Shown piece by piece: positions 12,788 through 50,553 of a DNA stretch of 64,000 nucleotides. A program made the position numbers and the translations under genes. Each line of letters begins with the position of its first letter. Positions within the stretch are counted from its first letter, which is position 1. The notes beneath the pieces were generated by a model. It did not search any database and was not told the origin of the DNA. It worked only from the letters and a program-made list of their open reading frames with translations. This stretch comes from Escherichia phage ECML-183-2. The DNA lies in the sequence record OL631481.1. One strand, given 5' to 3'.

Positions 12788-13130
12788 GACAATCTCCTCT
12801 CATCGTTAGCCATCTTTCATGGCAATCATCAATCACCAACATCATACGATCAATCTTAAGGAATTACAATCGAATTATCATAGGGGATTCCTATCAATTA
12901 TCCCATATATACCGATTATTTTTGACACCCCATTCTTGTATAAAAAGTAACCCAAAATATCCACGGGGAGAGATTATTTCGACACACCCTGTTTCATGGC
13001 AATCATGGCAAGAATATCTAATAGAATCAATATCATATGGCAAAAATCATGGCGCATACGTAAGAAGTGCTTAACGCGAATTTTCGGGCCGTCAGGTCCA
13101 CGCAGCGACAATTCCCAAATATCATGCGAA

Positions 13131-13149
13131 TGAGAATAATTATCATTCG
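13131..13149. promoter_or_regulatory. Fur-box-like palindromic site
   Basis: GAGAATAATTATCATTCGT, 12 of 19 matches to GATAATGATAATCATTATC. Confidence 0.25.
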
Positions 13150-13310
13150 TATTCAATGACTTATGCAAGGCTCATGCCAACATAGCGACAAGGTGGGCCA
13201 CCTGATTATAAATCACACAAACACTTATTTATCAATGGTTTGGCAACTTCATCATATGACGGAACAATGTCAACTAATCCCGCTCATGACAGACGGACTA
13301 TTATTTATAT

Positions 13311-13329
13311 GAGAATGATTATTATTTAA
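13311..13329. promoter_or_regulatory. Fur-box-like palindromic site
   Basis: GAGAATGATTATTATTTAA. Confidence 0.25.
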
Positions 13330-14363
13330 ACGTTTATTAACATATAAACTAAAATAAATCAAGAATTTTCTGATTTTATTTACGTTTAAGAGAAGGTGCT
13401 CAACATCCTACCGGATCGCCGTTGGCAATCCTCGGATATTTACGCCCCCATGATTAAGGTTTATCTCTTTTATAGCTCAACATTCCCGCCTGTGGCGGTA
13501 ACATTTCGCCCCCAAAATTATTGACTTTTATTCTATTATGTGCATAGTGTGCAATGTATCGGAATGATGATAATCATCCTCCCATTGCCCCCATAATTAT
13601 TGCCATGCTAATTGTTTCATTACGTAATTATTACAATGACTATTGTTATTGCGCTAATGTTATGATCTTGGTAATTACATATAATGCTAATAATAAGCCA
13701 GCGCAATAAGTGTAAGCGTCATTACGCTTGCAATTATTGCAAGCTACGCAGTAACAAGAAATAACCATCACCGATGGTTATGATTGTTGGGGTGTAGTTG
13801 GCTTATTATTAGCTCGCTATGTGTCCGGCATAGCGTGCTAATGATGACTCTGTGAATGATTCGTTTTGTAATGATTTCATTCAGGCACTATTTTGCTAAT
13901 AGTTATTATTTTAATGGTTTCGTTTGTTATTGTTCGTTAGTTGGTTGTTTTGTCGTGTTATCGTTATTTTGCTTAGTATTTATCATGGTTTGATTGTTTG
14001 TCGTTATCAATCATCTTGCTATTATTCCTTTGATTATGATTAGTTTGCTTATTGTTTTATGTTGTTTGTTGGTTAGTTGTTGCGAACTATTATCAACATT
14101 ATAATTATGCGCTTATATTGCATAGATAATCATGGGTAGATGATAATGGTTATCATTGCACTAGAAAGGAGGTAAAAGGGTGTTTTTGATGGTTTGTTGT
14201 TGGTTGTTGATCGATTTTAACCGCTCTAAATAGCTCTCTAACAGCCTGTTGCCCTGGGATGTATGGTTATTCGTTTAATGGTCGATTAGCTCGATACCGT
14301 GATTTATTCAGTTTTGTTCTGTGTCGGTTTTTCATAGGCGAAAGCTATCAACATTGTTCGGGC

Positions 14364-21954: not shown

Positions 21955-22134
21955 TTAACGATAATCATTATAGGCTTTATTGACCTGGCGAATGTAACAT
22001 TCGAAAGCAAGATCAATGTATTCGTATTCACGCACATAATCACCATAGGTCACTACATACATTTTTAAAGTTTCCTCATAAGCCAGGAGGATCGAATCTA
22101 AACCTATAATCTCAGTTTTTGCAATGATAGCCAT
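21955..22134 (-). CDS. small protein (59 aa)
   Basis: hand-translated MAIIAKTEIIGLDS...; below the 60-aa cutoff of the supplied track. Confidence 0.4.
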   Translation of the reverse strand: MAIIAKTEIIGLDSILLAYEETLKMYVVTYGDYVREYEYIDLAFECYIRQVNKAYNDYR

Positions 22135-24382: not shown

Positions 24383-24491
24383 TCACTTTTTCAATCTTTT
24401 TTATTTTCTTTTTGCTTGCTATATATAAAAGAAAGGGCTATCATCTTTCTACCGCGCCAACCAGGGCGCACATCAAAGAAAGGGCGATACC

Positions 24492-24758
24492 ATGACAAAT
24501 ACTACATTACACCTTATGCACTCATTGGGCTGGCAAGGCGGCACGGTGCACCAGGTAGCAAGCGCAACGGGCTTAAAGGTTGAAACAGTTCTCAACCTGG
24601 GCGATCATAAGGTGGAAGAAATAGATCATTTTGATACGTTCGCAAATGGTTATCTATGGGCTTGCAGTGGCGGCGGGGAAAGCAAGATACCACCAGGGGC
24701 GCGGGGCGATATGTATTTTTGGTTAGGTGTCCTATCCTGGCAAGAAAACAAAAAATAA
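24492..24758 (+). CDS. hypothetical protein (88 aa), possible small DNA-binding regulator
   Basis: only plus-strand ORF at the head of the array; AAGGG RBS; candidate extended -10 (TGcTATATA) upstream. Confidence 0.4.
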   Translation: MTNTTLHLMHSLGWQGGTVHQVASATGLKVETVLNLGDHKVEEIDHFDTFANGYLWACSGGGESKIPPGARGDMYFWLGVLSWQENKK

Positions 24759-24760
24759 TC

Positions 24761-24789
24761 TTGACAAGCCCAGGGATCGGGCTTATACT
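24761..24789 (+). promoter_or_regulatory. sigma70-like promoter with no CDS downstream
   Basis: TTGACA-N17-TATACT on the plus strand. Confidence 0.5.
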
Positions 24790-24795
24790 GTTTTA

Positions 24796-24900
24796 CATAC
24801 AGAAGAGGAAGCGCCACCCCACGGCGTAAAGGCGGGGCTAACATACCAGGGGGGGCACTGGTTGGAAGGTTGATCGCCGGTAGGCTGGGCGCTATATATT
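24796..24900 (+). ncRNA. candidate small structured RNA (GC-rich island)
   Basis: begins after promoter 24761-24789; GC-rich with paired GCGCC / GGCGC ends, followed by TATATATTT; no ORF with RBS. Confidence 0.3.
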
Positions 24901-25023
24901 TGTAAAGAAATGTAAAGATAAAATAATCGCTTGCTTTCCTGGCTGGATCTGTTATTCTTATTACATGGCGAGGGGACACGGGAGCGCGAGACAAACACCG
25001 CCCCTGCGCGTCATTCTCTAAAT

Positions 25024-25042
25024 GAGAATGATTATCATTTAC
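25024..25042. promoter_or_regulatory. Fur-box-like palindromic site
   Basis: GAGAATGATTATCATTTAC, 15 of 19 matches to Fur consensus; flanked by inverted repeat TCATTCTC / GAGAATGA. Confidence 0.3.
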
Positions 25043-25081
25043 CTTATCAAATAAGAATCAATCTCATTTATAAACCTAAAT

Positions 25082-25100
25082 GCGAATCATTATCATTTGC
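25082..25100. promoter_or_regulatory. Fur-box-like palindromic site
   Basis: GCGAATCATTATCATTTGC. Confidence 0.25.
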
Positions 25101-25145
25101 ATTTCCATATGAGAACTCTTCTCATTCCCATCTGCATAAATTTTT

Positions 25146-25328
25146 GTAAACTTTAAATTTTGCTTTTGTACTTTCATTTTTGTAAAAGCAAAAAAACTTT
25201 AAATACTGTGGGCGCGCAAAATTTTTAAAATTTTCCTTGACTTTTGAGTTTTGTTTTGTATCTAACATTTTAAGATAATTTTCCTAAACTTTAAATTTTG
25301 GTTTTCAACTTTCACTTTTGTAAATTCT
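25146..25328. repeat. AT-rich direct repeats (two copies of about 43 bp plus shorter reiterations)
   Basis: aactttaaattttgcttttgtactttcatttttgtaaaa repeated as aactttaaattttggttttcaactttcacttttgtaaat; tttgagata reiterated at 25350-25390. Confidence 0.5.
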
Positions 25329-25566
25329 TAAAAAGTTTAAATAATTTGAGGGATTTTTGAGATAATAGGTAGTGGGAATTTGAGATAACCTTTAATCTTA
25401 TTAGTAGACCTTCAGGAACCCACTCAGATCGAATCCTAGTGATGCAAACTGAAAAAGACAAGGGTTTGTATAGGACAAAATAACAGGCTCTCTACGGTGC
25501 TGTAGGAGCCTTATTTCTGTGCTACAAAGTGACACCTTTGTTCTAAAAATGAAAAAAGTTAAAATA

Positions 25567-26109
25567 TCACAAATATCGTCTTTGCGGTATTTTGTCTGGG
25601 AAAAGTATTTCGATCAGTTTGTTATGATATTTACCTAAAAGATTTTGCCCTTTCCAGTTGACCGGATTTAGCACCCCTGGTTCATACATTCCCATTCCAA
25701 TACCGTAAACCTTATCGTAAGGACTTGCTTCAACAAACGTTTTGTATTGGTAAAGGTGTAAGTCTGCATACAAATCTGGATTCTGTACATATTTCAAGCA
25801 TAAACCTCGCATAACAATACGCTCACGGTTCTCTTCCCATACGTTGTTATCAAAATCCGACACTGCCCTACCCATACGTTTGTAATAAGCTTGAATCTTC
25901 TCATCTTTCCGTATCAAACTATGAGTCAGAATAGCCTGTGCAGTGTTGTGATCATTAAAAAGCAAAGCTTTACGCCACATTATGTATTGTTCGACACAAT
26001 TAAATGTCTGATTGTAACCTGGTTCGGTTTCTGTAAAGGGTGCAATATACCAATTACTAAAAACATCTTTATGTGAAAAGAAGAATACATAATCATCAGT
26101 TATTCGCAT
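25567..26109 (-). CDS. NADAR-domain protein (YbiA-like, DUF1768)
   Basis: YVFFFSHKDVFSNWYIAPF and EQYIMWRKALLF motifs typical of NADAR N-glycosidase domain. Confidence 0.6.
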   Translation of the reverse strand: MRITDDYVFFFSHKDVFSNWYIAPFTETEPGYNQTFNCVEQYIMWRKALLFNDHNTAQAILTHSLIRKDEKIQAYYKRMGRAVSDFDNNVWEENRERIVMRGLCLKYVQNPDLYADLHLYQYKTFVEASPYDKVYGIGMGMYEPGVLNPVNWKGQNLLGKYHNKLIEILFPDKIPQRRYL

Positions 26110-26284
26110 TTTTCATACTCTCCAAAATTTCACGTTGCCCTTGCTGATAGGCTTTCATCAGAACTACTTTAAGGTTTGTCTCCAAGAGGTCTTCATTGTA
26201 ATTATACCGCTCCACAACATATGTCAATTCATCATAAAGATGAAGAACGGGGTAGAATACAGGGTTATCTGCTAAACGTGCCAT
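26096..26284 (-). CDS. hypothetical protein (62 aa)
   Basis: start moved to ATG (MARLAD) after AAAGGAGA RBS. Confidence 0.4.
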   Translation of the reverse strand: MARLADNPVFYPVLHLYDELTYVVERYNYNEDLLETNLKVVLMKAYQQGQREILESMKNANN

Positions 26285-26297
26285 AGTTTCTCCTTTG

Positions 26298-26663
26298 TTA
26301 ATCCATCCACCAGTAGCCATAAACTGCGTCTGCGTCGATGAGTTTGTGTTTGTTGTTCCGCATGTAGTCTAAGATAAGTAGACGTTTATTGTATCTGGAG
26401 AGATTATGACCCTCTTTTCCGCCATAGTCAAAATATTTTGCAAGATCTTTACACTCAAACAAAATCAGTTCGGGAGTTTCTTCACACTGGTCTGTCTGGT
26501 ACACTTGACGAATGATCATGTATACATCGTCGTCTTCCGCTAAATGCTCTACTGGTCCACATCCAGCAGGAACAAATTCATAGTCCCATCTGATCAGATG
26601 TTTCTCTACTGCTTCAAAGAAGTCCATTCTTTCGTTGCGCATAATTTGAACGTCAACTAACAT
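26298..26663 (-). CDS. hypothetical protein (121 aa)
   Basis: AGGAGG RBS. Confidence 0.5.
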   Translation of the reverse strand: MLVDVQIMRNERMDFFEAVEKHLIRWDYEFVPAGCGPVEHLAEDDDVYMIIRQVYQTDQCEETPELILFECKDLAKYFDYGGKEGHNLSRYNKRLLILDYMRNNKHKLIDADAVYGYWWMD

Positions 26664-27841
26664 GTTTCCTCCTGTAATGTTCCACCATAAAGTTTATAAA
26701 TGTTTTGTATTGATGCCATGCAAGATAACTCCGCTGTCTCTGTGTAGCCATCTGGCATAGCATATTTGCTCACTGCTTCCGTGTGAAGGACACGCTTACA
26801 ACGCTTTTCTGCATCTTTGCATTGCTTCACAGTAGGGAAGTGCCACACTTGGCCCTGTTTCATAGTAAACACATTACGACTATTTTGTTCTTTGATACGG
26901 CGATTACTATTATTAGCAATACCAAACTTCAGTGCACAGATAATATCTTGCTCATCGTAAATATAATTAATGTAGGCTTGTTGTTGATTTTTGTTAGCAC
27001 ACTGCGGACAACCTTGTCCTATGTTTAAAAGGTTGTTTGCAGTTCCTTTTTGTTCCCCATGACTCTTACATACGTATTTAAACTTACCTATAGAAGATGG
27101 TTTGGTAATCCATCCTATCCAAACATACCCTTTCTTTTCTATTTTCTTTCTTACTTTATACGTAATCTGTTCCGCTGTATACCTATAAGATGCAGAGCAA
27201 CGGCAGGGTAAGTGTCCATATTTAAGATTGCTACGCGTCATATAAAACTTACCATCACATAGTCCAGCTTTAACATATTCATCATGAGAACAAACAGGAC
27301 ACTGAACCATCCATACTGGATCACACCCTTTACGTTCCCCCGTGTTGGTGAAAATAGTGCCTTCCTTAAACTTCCCTGTAGAAAAGAAATCTGCAATATG
27401 TTGATCGTCGGGTATTGTTTGTGACCTCCTTGTGTTCTCATACCTACATATAAGACAACCACTGCCATGTTTAAAACTATCAAAACTACATGTATTCCAT
27501 TCATGACCATACCTACAACGTAGCATCATTTTCGTACGCGCACCTTTAAACGGTTCTACGATACCTATGATGGTAATCCCCTTAGCTTCCGCTATTGGTT
27601 TACATTCAGTAAGGTATGTTTTTAAATCTTTAATTTGACCTGCACACATAGGACAACCACTACCACGTTTAAAACTGTTAATACTTGTAGTATCCCATTT
27701 ATAACCACAATGACACAACAAATCAAGTTTTGTATTAACCCCTTTCCATTCTCCCGTCCATCCTAAGATTTGGATTTGCTTACTCTCTGCTATTGGTTGA
27801 CACTCTTCTTTATATTGTTCCCATGATTTTGGTGCTGCCAT
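26657..27841 (-). CDS. zinc-finger repeat protein with C-terminal GIY-YIG-like (T5orf172-type) domain
   Basis: three repeats of C.{2,3}G..W.T.S..SFK.GSGCP.C treble-clef-like units; C-terminal YINYIY...KFGIAN...R...E pattern; AGAGGAG RBS. Confidence 0.5.
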   Translation of the reverse strand: MAAPKSWEQYKEECQPIAESKQIQILGWTGEWKGVNTKLDLLCHCGYKWDTTSINSFKRGSGCPMCAGQIKDLKTYLTECKPIAEAKGITIIGIVEPFKGARTKMMLRCRYGHEWNTCSFDSFKHGSGCLICRYENTRRSQTIPDDQHIADFFSTGKFKEGTIFTNTGERKGCDPVWMVQCPVCSHDEYVKAGLCDGKFYMTRSNLKYGHLPCRCSASYRYTAEQITYKVRKKIEKKGYVWIGWITKPSSIGKFKYVCKSHGEQKGTANNLLNIGQGCPQCANKNQQQAYINYIYDEQDIICALKFGIANNSNRRIKEQNSRNVFTMKQGQVWHFPTVKQCKDAEKRCKRVLHTEAVSKYAMPDGYTETAELSCMASIQNIYKLYGGTLQEETC

Positions 27842-27916
27842 CTGTTGCTCCTCTTATTAATCTGATATCCATACAAGAGAAAACCCGCCGAAGCGGGTTT
27901 AATAAATCTCAACTTA

Positions 27917-29056
27917 TTAGAACACGCTACCTAATGTGGTGGAACGTTGTGTTACAGGCTCCAGCACCACTCGCAGAGTGTTTCCTGGTGTAGTGCTCAT
28001 CACCAGGATCTTACCACCTTCAATCAGATCACAAGTTAGACCATCAGCAGTTGCACATAGATCAATATGTGGATCACCATCTTCATCCAGGATAACATAA
28101 CTGTTGGTTTCCATTGCTTCAACTTCATCATCTTTCAAGCTTTGCAGATAGATGTTCAGGGAACAAGCACCCGACAAAAACTTAGTAGGGGTGAAGTCGT
28201 GCCAGTTATTGATCCAATTCACCTTCAGAGTTTTGCCATTAGCTACGATAGAAGCCACATTCCATTTAGCATCATTGCCTAAAGAAATACCCATCATTTC
28301 AAGGCATTCTTTAAAAGTCATTTTTGGATAGAAATTCAATTCTTCTACAATGCCTTGAATAACATCGAAAGACAACTCTGTGCTAACATCCCATAAACGT
28401 TGGAAGTTATCTACGTGTTTTTTATTTACCAAGTTCTTATCCAAGTAATCTAACATAGTTTCACTAGACAGTTTATCGTAATTGAAACTGTAATAGATAC
28501 GACTAGGACGGTTTACAAAATATTCCGAGATATAGCCGCTATTTTTAGTGAGGATGTAAAGTTTATTTCCACTTCCTGTTCCATCCAACAAGGTCAACAG
28601 TGCTTCCTGATCTTCTTTCTTAGCGTACACTTTATCAAATTCGTCAAATAAAACAACAGCACGATCTGTAATTTTACTCATAAATTCTAAGAATCCAGCA
28701 TCTGTGTAAGGCTGTGTCACCAAAATGGTTGGAATACCTAAACCTTCTGTGGACATTAGGGACATGCTAATTAGTTTAGCCAACATCGTCTTACCACTGC
28801 CTTTTGTCCCTGTCAGTAACACCCCAGTATTTTTACCTTCTTTACTACGACGAGCAAATGTTTTAATAACATGTGCGGCGCGATCTTTAGTTTCCCCATA
28901 AAGAGTGTTCGGAAGAGAGAAACTTTCACCACGCACTAAAGAGTAGTTACCGTGCGGATCGCAGTTGACAACCCAAACTCCAGCAGGAAGTTTATTAGCT
29001 TCAACGCCATATTCCTTATTTACAACAGCTACATCTCCAAAAATAGTGTATTTCAT
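27917..29056 (-). CDS. AAA+ family ATPase
   Basis: Walker A GTKGSGKT and Walker B VVLFDEFD. Confidence 0.65.
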   Translation of the reverse strand: MKYTIFGDVAVVNKEYGVEANKLPAGVWVVNCDPHGNYSLVRGESFSLPNTLYGETKDRAAHVIKTFARRSKEGKNTGVLLTGTKGSGKTMLAKLISMSLMSTEGLGIPTILVTQPYTDAGFLEFMSKITDRAVVLFDEFDKVYAKKEDQEALLTLLDGTGSGNKLYILTKNSGYISEYFVNRPSRIYYSFNYDKLSSETMLDYLDKNLVNKKHVDNFQRLWDVSTELSFDVIQGIVEELNFYPKMTFKECLEMMGISLGNDAKWNVASIVANGKTLKVNWINNWHDFTPTKFLSGACSLNIYLQSLKDDEVEAMETNSYVILDEDGDPHIDLCATADGLTCDLIEGGKILVMSTTPGNTLRVVLEPVTQRSTTLGSVF

Positions 29057-31207: not shown

Positions 31208-31501
31208 TCACATTAAGACACGTTTTGTATCGATGGGTGCATTATCAAACATGTTAAGAACATTGTCAAGCAGTTTTACTAATTCATTTGTAATTTGTTC
31301 TTTTGAACGGGAGGAAGTGAGCACTTTGCTTTCACCAATGATATGCATAACTTTTATAGGGGCATCTAAAATAATGTTGTGTTGACGATCCTCTTCAAAA
31401 GAAGCCAACCATTTCTCATTGTTACCGTGCAAGGCTACAATCACACCAAAACCGTTAATTGTTTCAGAAATATTCTTAGTTGCTAAAGTAATGTTCATCA
31501 T
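31208..31501 (-). CDS. hypothetical protein (97 aa)
   Basis: AGAGGTAG RBS; first gene of minus-strand operon. Confidence 0.5.
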   Translation of the reverse strand: MMNITLATKNISETINGFGVIVALHGNNEKWLASFEEDRQHNIILDAPIKVMHIIGESKVLTSSRSKEQITNELVKLLDNVLNMFDNAPIDTKRVLM

Positions 31502-31557
31502 CTACCTCTCTTGTTAATGTTCATACATGATACCTGAAAATAATTTCAGATCAAGTA

Positions 31558-31585
31558 TTGACATACTTTTTAATCTTGTTAAGAT
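31558..31585 (+). promoter_or_regulatory. sigma70-like promoter opening the plus-strand module
   Basis: TTGACA-N16-TAAGAT then AAAAGGAG RBS and ATG 31616. Confidence 0.6.
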
Positions 31586-43971: not shown

Positions 43972-44628
43972 ATGACTATTAAACATATCTCTTTTGATGT
44001 ATGGAACACACTGATCACAGCAAACTCCAATTACGCAGACATGCGAGCCTGGACTATCGCAAAATATGGAGATATTACGGAAGTGGAAGCAAGAGCAGCT
44101 TATAAGAAGATCAAAAAGGAACTGGATAATGCAGCACTTCAAGGCAAAGCCGAGTGTGCAGCATACGCTTGGGAAAGACTTGGTTCTGAACTTGGGATAA
44201 CGCCTTGGAAGTCTGCAAAACTTCGTTTCGAGTGTGAACAGTGGTTCCTTAAGTTTCCACCACACGTAGCCGTGGATCTGCCGATGTACTTGCTGTATCT
44301 TTCAGGGCGTTATGATTTGAGTATTAAGAGCAATACCAACTTCATATCAGGGGATATCCTGCGTCGTGCTTGTAAGTTTGATAGTTGGAATTGTTTTGAG
44401 TTCACCCATTTCTCGGATGAAGCTTTACTTTGTAAACCAGATCCGCGATTCTTTGCTCGCACGCTCACGTATTCTCCGATCCCTCTGTTAGGGCACGAAG
44501 TATTGCACGTAGGCGATAGTGAAGAATATGATGGAAAATGTGTTGACTTAGGATTTAACTTCTGTCATATTAAGAACCCTAACGACTTACTAGAGAAACT
44601 TAAAAGAGGAGAAATTGTAAATGCGTAA
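43972..44628 (+). CDS. HAD-superfamily hydrolase-like protein
   Basis: motif I-like ISFDVWNTLI, motif III KPDPRFF, motif IV HVGDSEEYDG. Confidence 0.55.
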   Translation: MTIKHISFDVWNTLITANSNYADMRAWTIAKYGDITEVEARAAYKKIKKELDNAALQGKAECAAYAWERLGSELGITPWKSAKLRFECEQWFLKFPPHVAVDLPMYLLYLSGRYDLSIKSNTNFISGDILRRACKFDSWNCFEFTHFSDEALLCKPDPRFFARTLTYSPIPLLGHEVLHVGDSEEYDGKCVDLGFNFCHIKNPNDLLEKLKRGEIVNA

Positions 44629-45448
44629 TCAAACTCAAATTTTTGCAAATAAATTTGATGACCTGGAAACTGCTACTTTTGATATCCAAGATTATTCAAA
44701 ATTGAAATTTGGTAGTAACCAAGCTGCGCGTCGTATGGGTAAAGAATTGGCACTTCAGTTTTTTGCTCAAGTGGCAATGAAACATATTGGGGAACAATTT
44801 GTTATCATCCCTTCTCCTTATAACCATGTGCATAATGCTGCAACAATGATGACAGATCATTTTATTAATTACTTTAATATGTTGCAAGCACAATATGATC
44901 AAGGTCGTTCAGCAGAACTGGATATTATTCATCGTAAAGTTAGCTATATCAACGATTATGGTTTCTTGGATAAAGCTAGTCGTAAGAAACTTATTGATGG
45001 GGATACATTCTACTGCAACAAAGAATTCTGGGGTGATAAGAAGCTTGTGTTCATTGATGATGTAAATATCACCGGAACTCATGAAGACAAACTGATTGAG
45101 ATTCTTGATGAAAATCAAGTTAAAAATGATGTTTACTTCTTGTATTTTGCAAAATATGAAGGTAATCAAGCAGATACTGAAGCTAAACTGAATTTTAACT
45201 ACATCAATACACCAGAAGCGTTTGTTAAAATGATTAATGAAGAACGTGATGCACAGTGTCTTGTTCGTCCTATTAAGTATCTTATGGGCCAAAATCACGA
45301 AGACTTCAAAATCATTCTTAGCCAATTGCCACACTACTATGTAGAGCAACTTTTCTTCGGATGTTTGGGAGAAGGCTATAATCGAATTGCAAAGTATACT
45401 GAAAACTTTGAGTTCTTGGATCGCTACACAAAACAACATATTCTATAA
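44621..45448 (+). CDS. phosphoribosyltransferase (PRTase type I)-like protein
   Basis: KLVFIDDVNITGTH matches the PRPP-binding loop pattern of type I PRTases. Confidence 0.5.
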   Translation: MRNQTQIFANKFDDLETATFDIQDYSKLKFGSNQAARRMGKELALQFFAQVAMKHIGEQFVIIPSPYNHVHNAATMMTDHFINYFNMLQAQYDQGRSAELDIIHRKVSYINDYGFLDKASRKKLIDGDTFYCNKEFWGDKKLVFIDDVNITGTHEDKLIEILDENQVKNDVYFLYFAKYEGNQADTEAKLNFNYINTPEAFVKMINEERDAQCLVRPIKYLMGQNHEDFKIILSQLPHYYVEQLFFGCLGEGYNRIAKYTENFEFLDRYTKQHIL

Positions 45449-45457
45449 GGAGGAAAA

Positions 45458-45940
45458 ATGTTGAAGGTTGTTACTGGGAATCTGATCGATGCAGCGAAGA
45501 ATGGGGAAGTGAACGTTATAGCCCACTGTTGTAACTGTATGTGTAATATGGGTGCAGGGATTGCTCCGCAAATTAAACGAGCATTTCCTTATGCATATGC
45601 AGCCGACTTGGACACATCCGCAGGTGATCAAAGTAAGCTGGGTTCTTTTAGTTTAGGTGTGCCGGAGGAGGTGTCTGGCCCACTGGTTTATAACCTATAC
45701 GGACAGTACCGTTACGGGTATAACGGTAAAGGTCGTCAGTTGGACTATGATGCGCTGTATGATGCTCTTGAGGCTATGGCAAAGGATCTCCACAAATGGG
45801 TGAACACATCTGCCGAACATAAGATTGGTTTACCTATGATCGGAGCAGGGTTGGCAGGAGGTAATTGGGCTATCATCGAAGTGATGATTGAAGAAACTTT
45901 AGTAAAAGCAGGTCACGATGTGACTATTTATAAACTTTAA
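45458..45940 (+). CDS. macro-domain protein (ADP-ribose binding/processing)
   Basis: VNVIAHCCNCMCNMGAGIA and IGLPMIGAGLAGGNW resemble macro-domain ligand-binding loops. Confidence 0.65.
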   Translation: MLKVVTGNLIDAAKNGEVNVIAHCCNCMCNMGAGIAPQIKRAFPYAYAADLDTSAGDQSKLGSFSLGVPEEVSGPLVYNLYGQYRYGYNGKGRQLDYDALYDALEAMAKDLHKWVNTSAEHKIGLPMIGAGLAGGNWAIIEVMIEETLVKAGHDVTIYKL

Positions 45941-45952
45941 GAGGAGATTAGT

Positions 45953-46174
45953 ATGGGTGTTTTTGCAGGTATTGTTGCAGTGGTAAGCTTTTTTGTTATT
46001 GCTTTTATGCTTAGTTTGATTCCAGCTTGGTTACTGTTGCTGGCTTACAACTATGTTGCTGAAGTTATGGGTCATGCAGATATCACTGTCCCAGTAACCT
46101 TCTGGACCGTGGTTTGTGTTTCGTTTATTCTGGCGGTATTACGAGGAATCTTTTCCTCTCATTCAACAAAATAA
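45953..46174 (+). CDS. small membrane protein (73 aa, two TM helices)
   Basis: AAGAGGAGA RBS; hydrophobic. Confidence 0.5.
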   Translation: MGVFAGIVAVVSFFVIAFMLSLIPAWLLLLAYNYVAEVMGHADITVPVTFWTVVCVSFILAVLRGIFSSHSTK

Positions 46175-46177
46175 GTG

Positions 46178-46236
46178 TTGACATAGTTCTTAAAAAGAGT
46201 AAGATATATCACATGAAGCGGGGAATAGTTCCCCGC
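46178..46236 (+). promoter_or_regulatory. promoter plus leader-hairpin cassette (plus-strand copy) in front of TerC gene
   Basis: TTGACA-N16-TAAGAT, atatcACATGAAG, hairpin GCGGGGAATAGTTCCCCGC; same architecture as minus-strand array. Confidence 0.6.
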
Positions 46237-46253
46237 AAAGAGAGGAGAAAAGA

Positions 46254-47228
46254 ATGCAACTTGGTTTCCCAATTATCGATGTAGTTGTTTTAGTTGGTAT
46301 TTTGGCATTGTCTATTGGTATCGATTTCTTTGGTCATAAAGAGAATAAAGAAATTGGAATTAAATCTGCTTTGCTTTGGTCTGTTTTTTGGATTGCTTTA
46401 GCTTTAGGATATTACGCATTCATTTGGGTAGAACATGGTAAAGAGTTTGCCGCGCTTTTCCTAAGTGGCTATGTGTTGGAAAAGAGTCTTTCTGTAGATA
46501 ACCTAATGGTGTTCATGGCAATTTTTGCAAGCTTTGGAATTAAGAGCACACATCTCCAACATAAGATTTTACTTTGGGGTATTGCAGGTGCCATTGTCTT
46601 CCGAGGTGTTTTTGTTGCAGCAGGGACAGCTTTGTTTAACCTGCATTGGTCGGTCCAAGTGTTGTTCGGTTTGATTGTAGCTTGGTCTGCCGTTGCTATT
46701 ATCAAAGGTGGTGACGAAGAAGAGGATATTGATTACTCTAAGCATTGGGCTGTTCGTTTAGTAGGTAAAGTTCTGCCTGTTCACAATGCACTGGATGGGG
46801 AAAAGTTCATCACCATTAAGAATGGTATTAAATATGCAACTCCTGCTCTTCTTTGTGTGTTTGTTATCGAGCTTACAGATATTGTCTTCTCTTTTGATTC
46901 AGTTCCGGCTGTGATCGGTGTGACACAAGAACCTCTGCTAGTTTATTCTGCAATGCTGATGGCTGTTCTTGGTTTACGTGCACTTTTCTTTGTGTTAAGT
47001 GTAGCTGTGAAATATCTGGTTCACTTAGAGAAAGCTGTTGCTGTGGTTCTGGTGTTTGTTGGTGCTAAACTTATGTATCACCCGTTCGGTGAAACACTTC
47101 ATGCCAAGTGGTCATTCCTCCCGCATGATATTTCCCCTAACGTAAGTCTGATGATTGTTCTAGGCACATTAGCTCTTGGTGTTATTGCAAGCTTTATCTT
47201 CCCTGAAAAAGAAGAAGCTGCTGTTTAA
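46254..47228 (+). CDS. TerC-family integral membrane protein
   Basis: multiple TM helices; EKSLSVDN and ELTDIVFSFDSVPAV motifs. Confidence 0.75.
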   Translation: MQLGFPIIDVVVLVGILALSIGIDFFGHKENKEIGIKSALLWSVFWIALALGYYAFIWVEHGKEFAALFLSGYVLEKSLSVDNLMVFMAIFASFGIKSTHLQHKILLWGIAGAIVFRGVFVAAGTALFNLHWSVQVLFGLIVAWSAVAIIKGGDEEEDIDYSKHWAVRLVGKVLPVHNALDGEKFITIKNGIKYATPALLCVFVIELTDIVFSFDSVPAVIGVTQEPLLVYSAMLMAVLGLRALFFVLSVAVKYLVHLEKAVAVVLVFVGAKLMYHPFGETLHAKWSFLPHDISPNVSLMIVLGTLALGVIASFIFPEKEEAAV

Positions 47229-47234
47229 TAGATG

Positions 47235-47259
47235 AGCCTCCTTCGGGAGGCTATTTTAT
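47235..47259 (+). terminator. rho-independent terminator
   Basis: AGCCTCC-ttcg-GGAGGCT hairpin followed by ATTTTAT. Confidence 0.6.
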
Positions 47260-47270
47260 AGGAGAGACTT

Positions 47271-47621
47271 ATGAATAATTTTGATGAAATTCAAGAACTT
47301 GTTTGGGATTTATCTGGTGATGTGGATTACGTTTTAGATTATCTTTCAAAAGTTTACCCTGGGGTAAGCGTTATGATCGTGACCAAAGATCCAATTAATT
47401 TGCCTCCTAATGTTGTAGCTTGTTGTGGAAGTGGTTCAGGAGAAGTAGAGCCTGTATCTCGTTGGGAATTAACTAAAGCTGTTTCAAAACGAAACGGTGA
47501 AGTTTTGAATATTGATATCGAACAAATATGGACTTCTCCAGCAGCCAAATGGAACGATCCAAATGGTTGGGATTTGTTCTTCTGGGATAATGAAACTGAT
47601 GATGAGGTATTTTTAAAATGA
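47271..47621 (+). CDS. hypothetical protein (116 aa)
   Basis: AGGAGAGA RBS. Confidence 0.5.
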   Translation: MNNFDEIQELVWDLSGDVDYVLDYLSKVYPGVSVMIVTKDPINLPPNVVACCGSGSGEVEPVSRWELTKAVSKRNGEVLNIDIEQIWTSPAAKWNDPNGWDLFFWDNETDDEVFLK

Positions 47622-47863
47622 AATACTTGTTGGTTGTGTTTGAAAATATCTGTTTTGCAATAGGGTTGTTTGTTGTAATTTTTGTATTGACAAGCGTAAT
47701 CAACGGCAGTAAAGTGAGTTTATACCGAGATGGAGAGCAACTTTATTGCTTCTCTGGAGATTTCAAACACAGATGTATTAATAGCCAAAACGAGGAAAGC
47801 AAATATGAAAAAACTAGCCCTGATTTTAATTGGTTGTATCTTTTTAACAGCTTGCGAGGATGA
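47618..47863 (+). CDS. small membrane protein (81 aa), overlaps next gene
   Basis: N-terminal TM helix; weak RBS; 59-nt overlap with lipoprotein gene. Confidence 0.3.
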   Translation: MKYLLVVFENICFAIGLFVVIFVLTSVINGSKVSLYRDGEQLYCFSGDFKHRCINSQNEESKYEKTSPDFNWLYLFNSLRG

Positions 47864-48242
47864 AACAAATCCTGCACAATACCAACAACCTCCTCAACAA
47901 TACGCTCAACAAGGATCTGACGGAGATACAACTATTATCAACAATGGTGGCGGTTCTAGTAGTAGCGGTGTTGGTGAGTTTGCTACAGGTATGTTGTTAG
48001 GGCATATGATGAGTGGCGGTAGTAATCGTAGCAGTGGGGATTATAACGATAACAGAACGATTATTAATAAGCATTATAATACACCTAAACCGAAAACTAA
48101 TTTTTATAGTAAGCCTAAACAAGAGATAAAAACTTATGAAAAGCCGAGACAAACTTTTAAAACAAATAGTAGCTATACAACTCGTAAATCTTACAATAGC
48201 CCTTTAAGTAAAAAGAGTTCATCTCGTAGCAAGCGACGTTAA
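47805..48242 (+). CDS. lipoprotein, low-complexity Q/S/G-rich with basic C-terminus
   Basis: MKKLALILIGCIFLTAC signal peptide with lipobox LTAC; GAGGAAAG RBS. Confidence 0.6.
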   Translation: MKKLALILIGCIFLTACEDETNPAQYQQPPQQYAQQGSDGDTTIINNGGGSSSSGVGEFATGMLLGHMMSGGSNRSSGDYNDNRTIINKHYNTPKPKTNFYSKPKQEIKTYEKPRQTFKTNSSYTTRKSYNSPLSKKSSSRSKRR

Positions 48243-48256
48243 TAAGGAGAAAAACA

Positions 48257-48850
48257 ATGACAATTTCTATTCGTACTTCCATTACAGGTGTTAAAAGTTT
48301 GCCTAATGCTTTGCAAATCACACGTGCTTTGAGGGATACGTTCTCTGCTGTGGATGAGCATAAGATGCTCGATAATCTCTCAAATTGGCCCTATTTTCAT
48401 TATTTTAAAAATGAAGACGACGAGTTTATAGACGCTGTTTCTTACGGTTATGATTTCGGTAAGGAGGTTTCTCCTGAAGAATTTGTAGCTACGGTATTTC
48501 CAAACGGTTTGCCTACTCGCAGTAAACGTAAAAAAGGACCAAAAAACAAGAAACGTGCTACTAATAAAGCTACCATTTTCTTTACTGATGGCACACAATA
48601 TACGATTAAAGATTTTGAAGAGGTATCTTATACAGCAGGTGGGAGTCTTTCTTTCTACACCATCAAAAAACAAAACTATACGTTCAGCCATGTTTCTAAC
48701 ATGATTGAAATGTTAGTAGAAGATATTGAAAGCGTGGCTGTGTTAGGTATGCATAAAAGCTTTTTAATTACAAATATTTCAGATTTCAGTGCAAGTTTAT
48801 CTGGCCCTGATTTTGAAGCCACGACCACGTATTTCGCTTTTAAGGTGTAA
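48257..48850 (+). CDS. hypothetical protein (197 aa)
   Basis: AAGGAGAAA RBS. Confidence 0.5.
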   Translation: MTISIRTSITGVKSLPNALQITRALRDTFSAVDEHKMLDNLSNWPYFHYFKNEDDEFIDAVSYGYDFGKEVSPEEFVATVFPNGLPTRSKRKKGPKNKKRATNKATIFFTDGTQYTIKDFEEVSYTAGGSLSFYTIKKQNYTFSHVSNMIEMLVEDIESVAVLGMHKSFLITNISDFSASLSGPDFEATTTYFAFKV

Positions 48851-48853
48851 GTT

Positions 48854-49444
48854 ATGCATACCGAGAGAGACTTGCAACTCTTGTGGTGGGAAGTGATGCA
48901 GGAAATAAAAGAAGATTTTCCTGTTTACTACAACATGTTACGTGAAGCAGGATATAAAGCTTGTGTTAGAAACAAAGTTAATAACTCTTTCGGTTGGTGC
49001 AACTACCGAGATAAAATTGTTGTTGTAAATTGGCACTTGCATAAGAACTCTACAAGAGATATGATCGTGGATACAATGAAGCACGAAATTGCTCATGCTA
49101 TTGATGGTTGTATGGGTAAGTTTAGTCGGCACGGTGCTCATTGGCAAAAACTGGCAGCAGAATTAGGAGCTAATCCTAAAGCCACTTCCAAAGAGCCGTT
49201 GAACCACGAATATAAATATGTTCTTGTTCTGGTAGATAGGTTTGCGACAAGATGTGTTAGAGGTTATAATCGTAAACCTAATCGCATGTACCCAGGCAAG
49301 CAACCTAACATGTGGTTGAAATCAGATAAAGAAGGAACTGAAGGAAAATTATGGTTGTATAAATGGGATGATTGGGTTAAAGTAGCTAAAGAGTACGGTG
49401 TTTCACCATATATAAGAGATGCAGAAGAGGAGAATGAAGAATGA
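48854..49444 (+). CDS. SprT-like zinc metallopeptidase-domain protein
   Basis: HEIAHAI HExxH motif followed by GAHWQKL. Confidence 0.55.
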   Translation: MHTERDLQLLWWEVMQEIKEDFPVYYNMLREAGYKACVRNKVNNSFGWCNYRDKIVVVNWHLHKNSTRDMIVDTMKHEIAHAIDGCMGKFSRHGAHWQKLAAELGANPKATSKEPLNHEYKYVLVLVDRFATRCVRGYNRKPNRMYPGKQPNMWLKSDKEGTEGKLWLYKWDDWVKVAKEYGVSPYIRDAEEENEE

Positions 49445-50553
49445 CAAGTCCATTTTTAAAAGCAGCTACTGGTGGTCAGAAGAAGTCTGAAATGAGTGTA
49501 TTCGCTGCAACAACAGATGCAAGTAAATCTGTATTTGCTCCAAGTGTGTTAGATGCCAGTCCTGTTTATGCACCAGCAGCACCGCAAGAAGTTCCAGTTT
49601 TACCTTCTATGACCCGACAAGAGATCGAAGAGATTGGGGCAGAGGCAGGCACAACCTTGCGTTCCTTGAATGCCGAGGTATTAAAACATCAACGTAGTAA
49701 TCAAGGCGATCAGATGAGTGAACGACTCACAGCTTTGATTAAACAGGCAAAACAACTTGATCCAAACTCTATTAAACAAAGCAAAGGTATTACTAAACTC
49801 ATTAAAAAAGTTATGGGTATGAAAGAAGACCTGTTTGGGGAGTTTGATAATGTTAATAACCGTATTGAAGAGTTGGTAAAGAACCTTCAAATGGATATTC
49901 GCAAAGAAGAAGATTCCTTGGTATATCTTGAAAAACTACATCAAGCTATTGGACAATATGCTGCAAGTTTGAACCGAGATATGCAGCTTCTAACAGCAAC
50001 CTATGAAAAAGAAGAACAAGCTTTAGCTGCTCTTCCAGAAGATGCAGTAGAACAGCGACAAGTGATCCGAGACACTTTGGATCTTCTGGAGATTCGTATT
50101 GCAGATTTAAAGGCATTGCGTCTACTGTGTGTCCAAATGGGACCGCGTGTACAAGGTATGCAAAAAGTTTCTGCAAGCTTAATGCGATCTGCGCGTAACA
50201 TAGTAAATAATGTTATTCCTGCTTACTCTGCTAACTTCTCAATGTATATTGAAAGCTTACGTCAAATGAAAGCCGCAGAGACGCAGAATAACGTTCTTGA
50301 TGAATTTAACCTGGCAATTAAACTGGGTAGCGATCTTGCCACACAGAATCAGATCGAAGCAGCAGCCCTGGCTAACCGTCAAGTGCTCGATATTGAAACT
50401 CTGCGTCACGATCAGGAAAACTTGGTTAAAATGTTGGAAGAAACTAACCGCATCAATACGGAAGCCCGTGCTGCTCGTGTTGATTATATTAATGAAGTTC
50501 AATCTCTGGAAGACGGGATGGTAGCTGCTGTGAAACGAGGGCTTGGTAAATGA
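49441..50553 (+). CDS. TelA-like (toxic anion resistance family) protein
   Basis: 370 aa, all-helical; conserved-looking RQVLDIETLR segment; neighbours TerC/TerD/vWA genes. Confidence 0.5.
   Translation: MTSPFLKAATGGQKKSEMSVFAATTDASKSVFAPSVLDASPVYAPAAPQEVPVLPSMTRQEIEEIGAEAGTTLRSLNAEVLKHQRSNQGDQMSERLTALIKQAKQLDPNSIKQSKGITKLIKKVMGMKEDLFGEFDNVNNRIEELVKNLQMDIRKEEDSLVYLEKLHQAIGQYAASLNRDMQLLTATYEKEEQALAALPEDAVEQRQVIRDTLDLLEIRIADLKALRLLCVQMGPRVQGMQKVSASLMRSARNIVNNVIPAYSANFSMYIESLRQMKAAETQNNVLDEFNLAIKLGSDLATQNQIEAAALANRQVLDIETLRHDQENLVKMLEETNRINTEARAARVDYINEVQSLEDGMVAAVKRGLGK

Follow-up and report, generated by a model that had tools for sequence, protein, structure and literature searches.

What would an Escherichia phage gain from a NADAR (YbiA-like) protein that is not encoded beside a toxin? 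The question is raised by a gene at 25567-26109 on the minus strand of a 64,000-nucleotide stretch of Escherichia phage ECML-183-2 (sequence record OL631481.1), hereafter called the window. The phage is a phAPEC8-like myovirus of the genus Phapecoctavirus (Stephanstirmvirinae); by megablast, the 3.4 kb used as query shared 97% identity with phage nepoznato. Our analysis indicates that the gene probably encodes an AdfN-type orphan ADP-ribosylglycohydrolase that reverses DarT1-type DNA modification during infection, the Phapecoctavirus counterpart of AdfN^Bas60.

The NADAR protein and its active site

According to the open reading frame (ORF) listing, only one such ORF lies at these coordinates, 180 aa long and starting with ATG. 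The first-pass annotation had noticed two NADAR patterns in exactly this ORF, and both strings were found verbatim in the protein, FFFSHKDVFSNWY covering residues 9-21 and EQYIMWRKALLF residues 40-51, far beyond chance. The domain assignment that it drew from them agrees with the hidden Markov model search that it had proposed as a check: Pfam NADAR (PF08719, DUF1768) was matched with an E-value of 1.6e-34 and 119.9 bits over profile positions 3-154 of 163, the gathering score being 35.1 bits. The protein also matched phrog_1017 (E 4.9e-51). Phytophthora nicotianae NADAR (PnNADAR, 8BAU) was the sole solved structure matched by the sequence (E 4e-15). The AlphaFold2 model of the protein had a predicted local distance difference test score (pLDDT) of 95.9, and significant PDB matches of this predicted structure were limited to 8BAU, 2B3W and 8BAT, all of which are NADAR proteins. 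The predicted fold is the NADAR (YbiA-like) alpha+beta fold, and the structure closest to the model was the stand-alone PnNADAR, not DarG1. PnNADAR was also a better match than E. coli YbiA, by sequence and by structure. However, PnNADAR differs from the window protein in being eukaryotic, in having N-terminal and internal extensions of its own and in carrying W133 where the window protein has Y135. Among the PADLOC models the best match was PDC-M42C (E 1.2e-34) rather than DarG; PDC-M42C is one part of PDC-M42, an uncharacterised candidate for anti-phage defence. The score against NCBIfam NF053876 (DS-32 NADAR anti-phage protein, DS32_2) was 16.6 bits, below the equivalog cut-off of 240. From the PDC-M42 and DS32_2 models, NADARs appear on both sides of the phage-host conflict.

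The roles of the active-site residues were taken from Schuller et al. (2023, Mol Cell; PMC11543638) and from PMC11825919, and were mapped by alignment to 8BAU, in which the chain numbers are higher by 2 than those of Schuller et al. The residues of PnNADAR that contact ADP-ribose correspond to window residues as follows: E43 to E40, K50 to K47, R79 to R81, W89 to W91, R93 to R95, E125 to E127, D130 to D132 and W133 to Y135. E40, K47, W91, E127 and D132 were invariant across an alignment of 57 homologues, and R81 was found in 55 of them. The first-pass annotation had let its reading depend on a catalytic glutamate, and E40 is that residue. E40 and K47 align with E36 and K43 of T4 gp30.3, the residues mutated by Johannesman et al. 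(PMC11825919), and their equivalents in E. coli C7 are E88 and K95. The position of Pn E125 is Asp in DarT1-associated NADARs and His in T4-type phage NADARs (PMC11543638), whereas the window protein has Glu127, invariant in its clade, which is the 'YbiA/NADAR-type' state; this Glu is common to YbiA and the broader stand-alone 'NADAR' family and is thus non-discriminating. Tyr replaces Trp at position 135 in 12 of the 57 sequences, the window protein included, and the closest relatives share a 7-residue insertion at about residues 64-76. The gene was intact in every relative compared, its ratio of nonsynonymous to synonymous substitution rates (dN/dS) was 0.026-0.15 against four Phapecoctavirus relatives and Bas60, and it is under purifying selection.

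Likeness to AdfN^Bas60 and competing readings

Johannesman et al. (2025, Nat Commun; PMC11825919) named the NADAR of T4 AdfN and found that it removes DarT1-installed ADP-ribose from DNA. In the same study two unrelated phage NADARs were assayed, one of them from Bas60-62. In E. coli without infection this protein, AdfN^Bas60, neutralised DarT1; it also allowed RB69, T5 and Bas25 to form plaques again on DarTG1, while it was without effect on DarTG2 (PMC11825919). We located its gene by tblastn as bas60_0111 (QXV83846.1). The window protein was 58% identical to it over 172 aa (E 4e-68), and the two genes shared 60% nucleotide identity. Bas60-62 were labelled 'Vequintavirinae' in PMC11825919 but are actually phi92-like; by their GenBank records these phages, Bas60 (PaulScherrer) among them, are Justusliebigvirus, and they belong to the same subfamily, Stephanstirmvirinae, as the window phage. 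At both loci the gene order is ATPase, CapR-type endonuclease and NADAR, followed by about 1.3-1.5 kb without annotated genes. Both proteins match phrog_1017 and, with E-values of about 1e-34, PADLOC PDC-M42C; both are orphans without a DarT partner, and both have the same set of catalytic residues. On the other hand, about 42% of the residues and the C-terminal tails differ, and the Bas60 locus is without the two extra small ORFs that lie between the endonuclease and NADAR genes in the window. The role in counter-defence that the first-pass annotation had suggested is therefore supported by homology, since a syntenic, 58%-identical protein neutralises DarT1 (PMC11825919). The anti-DarTG1 idea had already been published in the 2025 literature, and the window protein is a further, expected member of the family.

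From this likeness to AdfN^Bas60 we infer that the window protein would hydrolyse guanine-linked ADP-ribose (G-ADPr), and the following course of events may be proposed. The gene would be expressed as part of a leftward array, whose genes are small and non-structural. A DarT1-type toxin of the host would move ADP-ribose from NAD+ to N2 of guanine in the phage DNA. The enzyme would grip the ADP-ribose moiety through K47, R81, W91, R95, D132 and Y135, and E40 together with E127 would cleave the N-glycosidic bond between ribose and guanine. Unmodified DNA would be restored in this way, and replication and transcription could continue. The rescue would be enzymatic and would not involve binding of the toxin. 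The enzymatic activity, its specificity for guanine, the timing of its expression and DarTG1 as its natural target are all presumed in this scheme.

Several points weigh against such a function. AdfN^Bas60 was tested by ectopic expression (PMC11825919), and we found no report of a phi92-like or phAPEC8-like phage that becomes sensitive to DarTG1 when NADAR is deleted. An identity of 58% may leave room for a change of specificity, and the 7-residue insertion and the Trp-to-Tyr replacement near the ADP-ribose site may have the same bearing; the active AdfN^Bas60 has both of these features. Early expression of the leftward array is read from gene position. Furthermore, YbiA and T4 gp30.3 hydrolyse a model substrate, yet alone fail to rescue DarT1 toxicity (Cihlova et al., 2024; PMC11125620), and therefore activity on G-ADPr in vitro is no guarantee of protection in vivo.

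The other characterised NADARs are of different kinds. DarG1 (E. coli C7; G. lovleyi, 8BAT) belongs to the same superfamily and, as the window protein is predicted to do, removes ADP-ribose from guanine, so that it may be regarded as a functional analogue that undoes the work of DarT1. However, DarG1 adjoins DarT1, whereas no ADP-ribosyltransferase (ART) was found in the scanned ORFs neighbouring the window gene; DarG1 has an N-terminal basic extension before the YbiA-like core, which the window protein does not have; and its catalytic residue at the Pn E125 position is Asp (D171 in E. coli C7) instead of Glu127. Lacking a DarT partner and the N-terminal extension, and having Glu and not Asp, the window protein is not a DarG1-type antitoxin. 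AdfN^T4 (gp30.3) is, like the window protein, a phage-encoded orphan, and it counters DarTG1. However, it falls in another clade of NADARs, in which His takes the place of the conserved Glu, needs a T-even-specific factor and alone did not rescue cells from DarT1. A relationship of the window protein to gp30.3 was considered and rejected, as no pairwise similarity was detected (BLASTP E 4.4) and Glu127 is present.

Phage NADARs occur in about 27% of myoviruses (Iyer et al., 2022). By tblastn, the family of the window protein was found in 718 phage records. No ART neighbour was seen beside its closest relatives on bacterial or metagenomic contigs, and these contigs were prophage-like or jumbo-phage-like. 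The pattern suggests a lineage of orphan NADARs moving between phages. The second BASEL paper makes no mention of DarTG, NADAR or Stephanstirmvirinae.

The best surviving alternative, which we hold to be a good deal less probable and which overlaps in part with the AdfN-type function, is that the protein removes ADP-ribose from nucleic acids broadly and that its natural targets are ARTs other than DarT1. Pierisin/ScARP-like or YarT-like toxins, RNA-targeting ARTs and the PDC-M42 effector are candidates, and the marks could be those on guanine, perhaps also on cytosine, of DNA and RNA alike. Enzymes from the NADAR as well as the YbiA family removed both G-ADPr and its cytosine-linked equivalent (C-ADPr) from DNA and from RNA, whereas among the NADARs assayed those of the DarG1 type and of T4 acted on G-ADPr only (PMC12945103). 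With Glu127 the window protein has the YbiA/NADAR-type state, neither the Asp of DarT1-associated nor the His of T4-type enzymes (PMC11543638), and both the nearest structure to its model (PnNADAR, not DarG1) and its best PADLOC model (PDC-M42C) point the same way. Johannesman et al. also suggested that such enzymes act whichever toxin placed the mark. However, no such other ART-based defence is known to act against these phages, and AdfN^Bas60 handles DarT1, so DarTG1 is at least one sufficient target. A stronger form of the same proposal would make the whole Stephanstirmvirinae NADAR clade, with its Glu-type site, its insertion and its Tyr for the Trp that stacks on ADP-ribose, a generalist eraser of guanine and cytosine marks in DNA and RNA and not a dedicated anti-DarTG1 enzyme; we consider this unlikely, and somewhat more so than the broader activity of the single protein. 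If it were true, these phages, whose host range is unusually broad, would be shielded from several ART defences at once, possibly including PDC-M42.

It is improbable that the substrates of the protein are soluble derivatives of ADP-ribose, such as second messengers of immunity or by-products of the metabolism of NAD+ or of RNA repair, and not modified DNA. This was the proposal of Iyer et al., and one close relative lies near NAMPT and phosphoribosyltransferase (PRTase) genes on a jumbo-phage-like contig. However, the proposal was made before experiments showed that all tested NADAR classes remove ADP-ribose from DNA, and the window gene is not beside any gene of NAD+ salvage. Still more doubtful is a housekeeping function as a YbiA-type N-glycosidase destroying reactive intermediates of the riboflavin pathway, the reading that underlies the 'GTP cyclohydrolase II / ribA-ribD-fused' annotations. 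The protein scored above the cut-off of NCBIfam TIGR02464, 'riboflavin biosynthesis intermediates N-glycosidase' (111.1 against 73.7 bits), and several GenBank labels read 'GTP cyclohydrolase II' or 'YbiA-like N-glycosidase'. However, TIGR02464 is a domain-level model and the identity to E. coli YbiA (2B3W) was 29% over 96 residues. The phylogeny of Johannesman et al. puts AdfN^Bas60 among bacterial NADARs that are neither YbiA nor DarG1 (PMC11825919), no riboflavin genes are nearby, and a lytic phage has no obvious need for such an enzyme. E. coli YbiA itself, a housekeeping N-glycosidase whose operon is under the control of LexA, gave no protection from DarT1 in vivo (PMC11125620). Hardly credible, finally, is a non-enzymatic inhibitor that binds an ADP-ribosylated immune effector of the host: a different phage NADAR reportedly acts on Retron-Eco1 in this manner, but nothing places that NADAR in the clade of the window protein, and the strict invariance of the catalytic residues in 57 homologues points to selection for catalysis.

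Neighbouring genes and the conserved region downstream

On the minus strand, 14 ORFs of the same direction extend from 31501 to 25567, and the NADAR gene is the final one. It had been described in the first-pass annotation as standing at the end of a minus-strand operon, and in agreement with this the array is closed by an intrinsic terminator on the minus strand (25474-25511), a GC-rich hairpin at 25485-25511 followed by UGUUAUUUUGU. The hairpin and U-tract begin 56 bases past the NADAR stop codon; the RNA fold had a z-score of -4.53, none of 200 shuffled sequences folding as well, and the position is that of the ARNold terminator annotated in the phAPEC8 record. At the head of the array, where the first ATG is at 31501, promoter-like sites with consensus matches were found on the minus strand in the divergent intergenic region (31527-31582).

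Immediately upstream of NADAR is a small ORF (26096-26320, minus strand) whose longest form is 74 aa. Relatives annotate 62 aa (189 nt) with a start at about 26284, and its match to phrog_22330 (E 6e-21) begins at residue 13. The NADAR ATG overlaps the stop codon of this ORF, which suggests that the two genes may be translationally coupled. Next come a 121-aa ORF (26298-26663, minus strand; phrog_24465, E 6e-87), which by comparison of synteny is missing between the endonuclease and NADAR genes in Justusliebigvirus, and an endonuclease-like gene with CapR homology and a treble-clef zinc finger (26657-27841, minus strand; Pfam CapR PF21817, E 1.6e-35; DUF4379; phrog_681 endonuclease). The length of the latter varies among close relatives (1008, 1185, 1194 and 1404 nt), and in some records it is labelled a homing endonuclease. 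Possibly this gene is mobile and influences how the NADAR locus beside it is exchanged. Farther upstream, an AAA+ ATPase gene (27917-29056, minus strand; Pfam AAA), annotated as ATPase in relatives, is kept as a neighbour in both genera, and between it and the endonuclease gene there is an internal terminator-like hairpin on the minus strand (27881-27900), AAACCCGCTTCGGCGGGTTT followed by a T-rich tail. When the flanking ORFs at 26096-29056 were scanned against Pfam, each gave CapR, AAA or no domain, and no ART or DarT domain was found among them.

Over the roughly 1.4 kb past the NADAR terminator, the gene calls of relatives are sparse or disagree, but part of this stretch is highly conserved: a block at about 24400-25040 was 92-99% identical between Phapecoctavirus and Justusliebigvirus, compared with 60% for the NADAR genes at the nucleotide level. 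Within this block lies an 88-aa ORF (24492-24758, plus strand; phrog_19316), oriented opposite to the flanking arrays. It has a promoter-like site upstream and a hairpin directly past its stop codon, its dN/dS was 0.06-0.14 and its nucleotide identity between the genera was 94-96%. It is annotated in some relatives, while in phAPEC8 a conflicting minus-strand call replaces it. These sequence comparisons identify the 88-aa ORF as a real gene.

The segment that follows, at about 24760-25040, is non-coding. It was 72-82% identical at the nucleotide level in Vequintavirinae (Seunavirus, Mydovirus and Certrevirus), where it is mostly unannotated, and in one Klebsiella phage a copy lies inside a tRNA cluster. 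It contains a near-consensus sigma-70 promoter on the plus strand (24761-24789; TTGACA-17-TATACT), in which the hexamers are conserved and the spacer varies. A core of about 95 nt (about 24795-24890) is rich in invariant positions and contains a hairpin with a loop of variable length. One pair of this hairpin alternated between AU and GC (in 12 and 7 sequences, respectively) without mismatches, and 94% of the cells were paired against 37-47% in slid controls. An invariant segment in the non-coding region could form a pseudoknot. RNAalifold gave only weak structures on either strand of the downstream region; no relevant Rfam match was obtained for it, and ARAGORN detected no tRNA or tmRNA. A literature search on the conserved region found no description of it, only an unrelated Fur box in the sit operon of lambda.

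Three Fur-box-like palindromes spaced 29 nt apart occupy 25018-25126. The box at 25024-25042 (minus strand) agreed at 16 of 19 positions with GATAATGATAATCATTATC, the 19-bp Fur-box consensus of E. coli; it was the sole match with three or fewer mismatches in the 64 kb, where 0.04 would be expected. When up to two mismatches were allowed, a 13-nt core, AATGATAATCATT, was counted 25 times where 5.4 would be expected; a second cluster lies at 13.1-14.2 kb (13129-14157) and a further copy at 21957. The palindrome array could be a Fur-regulated promoter or decoy, or it could represent a phage-specific operator motif. Between this array and the NADAR terminator, there is an AT-rich stretch (25139-25348; GC 0.27) with direct repeats of about 30-72 nt that resemble iterons (AATTTT..AAACTTTAAATTTTG..). 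Similar repeats were seen in Justusliebigvirus. The stretch may be an origin or a regulatory region. For the conserved non-coding region as a whole, a stable RNA, a sense/antisense pair, an origin-like region and an operator array are the candidates, and it is unrelated to the function of NADAR.

A candidate second eraser and its meaning for the family

The first-pass annotation had also pointed to a macrodomain gene at 45458-45940 and proposed that the phage may carry two independent enzymes for the removal of ADP-ribose. The gene exists on the plus strand, encodes 160 aa and lies in a transcription unit separate from that of NADAR. The protein belongs to phrog_335 and scored barely above the threshold for Pfam Macro (22.9 against 22 bits). 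Its other macrodomain matches were the PADLOC DarG model (E 6e-12) and several structures: 5M31 (E 1.6e-7), a DarG macrodomain entry, TARG1/OARD1 (4J5R and related entries) and 5E3B (E 9e-13). The last is SCO6735, which is listed together with DarG2 and TARG1 as reversing DarT2-type ADP-ribosylation of thymidine in a 2026 Toxins paper (PMC12945103). The protein was 34% identical (E 1e-21) to T4 Tk.4, another member of phrog_335, which has been described as AdfM, the macrodomain anti-DarTG2 factor (preprint 10.1101/2025.11.20.689424). Tk.4 likewise matches the DarG macrodomain model of PADLOC. The settings differ, as Tk.4 lies beside tk and vs in T4 and the window gene lies in a PRTase_3/HAD-like/TerC/TelA cluster. 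By homology the macrodomain protein is likely a second ADP-ribose eraser related to Tk.4/AdfM, and the proposal of two independent erasers is thus backed by a relative in each case, AdfN^Bas60 for the NADAR protein and Tk.4/AdfM for the macrodomain protein. AdfB of ICP1 was also considered as a comparator for the macrodomain gene and was set aside, because AdfB binds DarT and is not a macrodomain eraser.

The cluster on the plus strand at 43972-50553 comprises a weak HAD-like hydrolase match, a ComF-like PRTase_3 gene, the macrodomain gene, TerC, a SprT-like gene and TelA. It lies just downstream of the anaerobic ribonucleotide reductase genes, with the macrodomain gene between PRTase and TerC. 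In its content it resembles the Ter-associated gene sets for a 'nucleoside-like metabolite' that have been described bioinformatically. On this likeness, the macrodomain protein could act in metabolism, in the synthesis or processing of a ribosylated metabolite, whether in addition to an AdfM-like function or in its place.

The NADAR gene has been widely misannotated as GTP cyclohydrolase II, DNA methyltransferase or hypothetical protein, and its reading as AdfN-type corrects this; further GenBank labels of the gene are swarming motility protein, YbiA-like N-glycosidase and NADAR family protein. Several records of the MG0656xx series carry the name 'Campylobacter phage' but hardly differ from these E. 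coli phages, so that their hosts may be mislabelled or the sequences contaminated.

For the phages themselves, the two genes suggest that the erasers required against both DarTG types are present in one genome, NADAR for guanine marks and the macrodomain for thymine marks; by sequence this parallels T4, which carries AdfN and AdfM. If the clade were instead a generalist, NADAR and an AdfM-like macrodomain would together cover guanine-, cytosine- and thymine-linked marks. With an AdfN-type NADAR and an AdfM-like macrodomain, phAPEC8-like phages would be predicted to resist both DarTG types and to plate on DarTG-positive E. coli.

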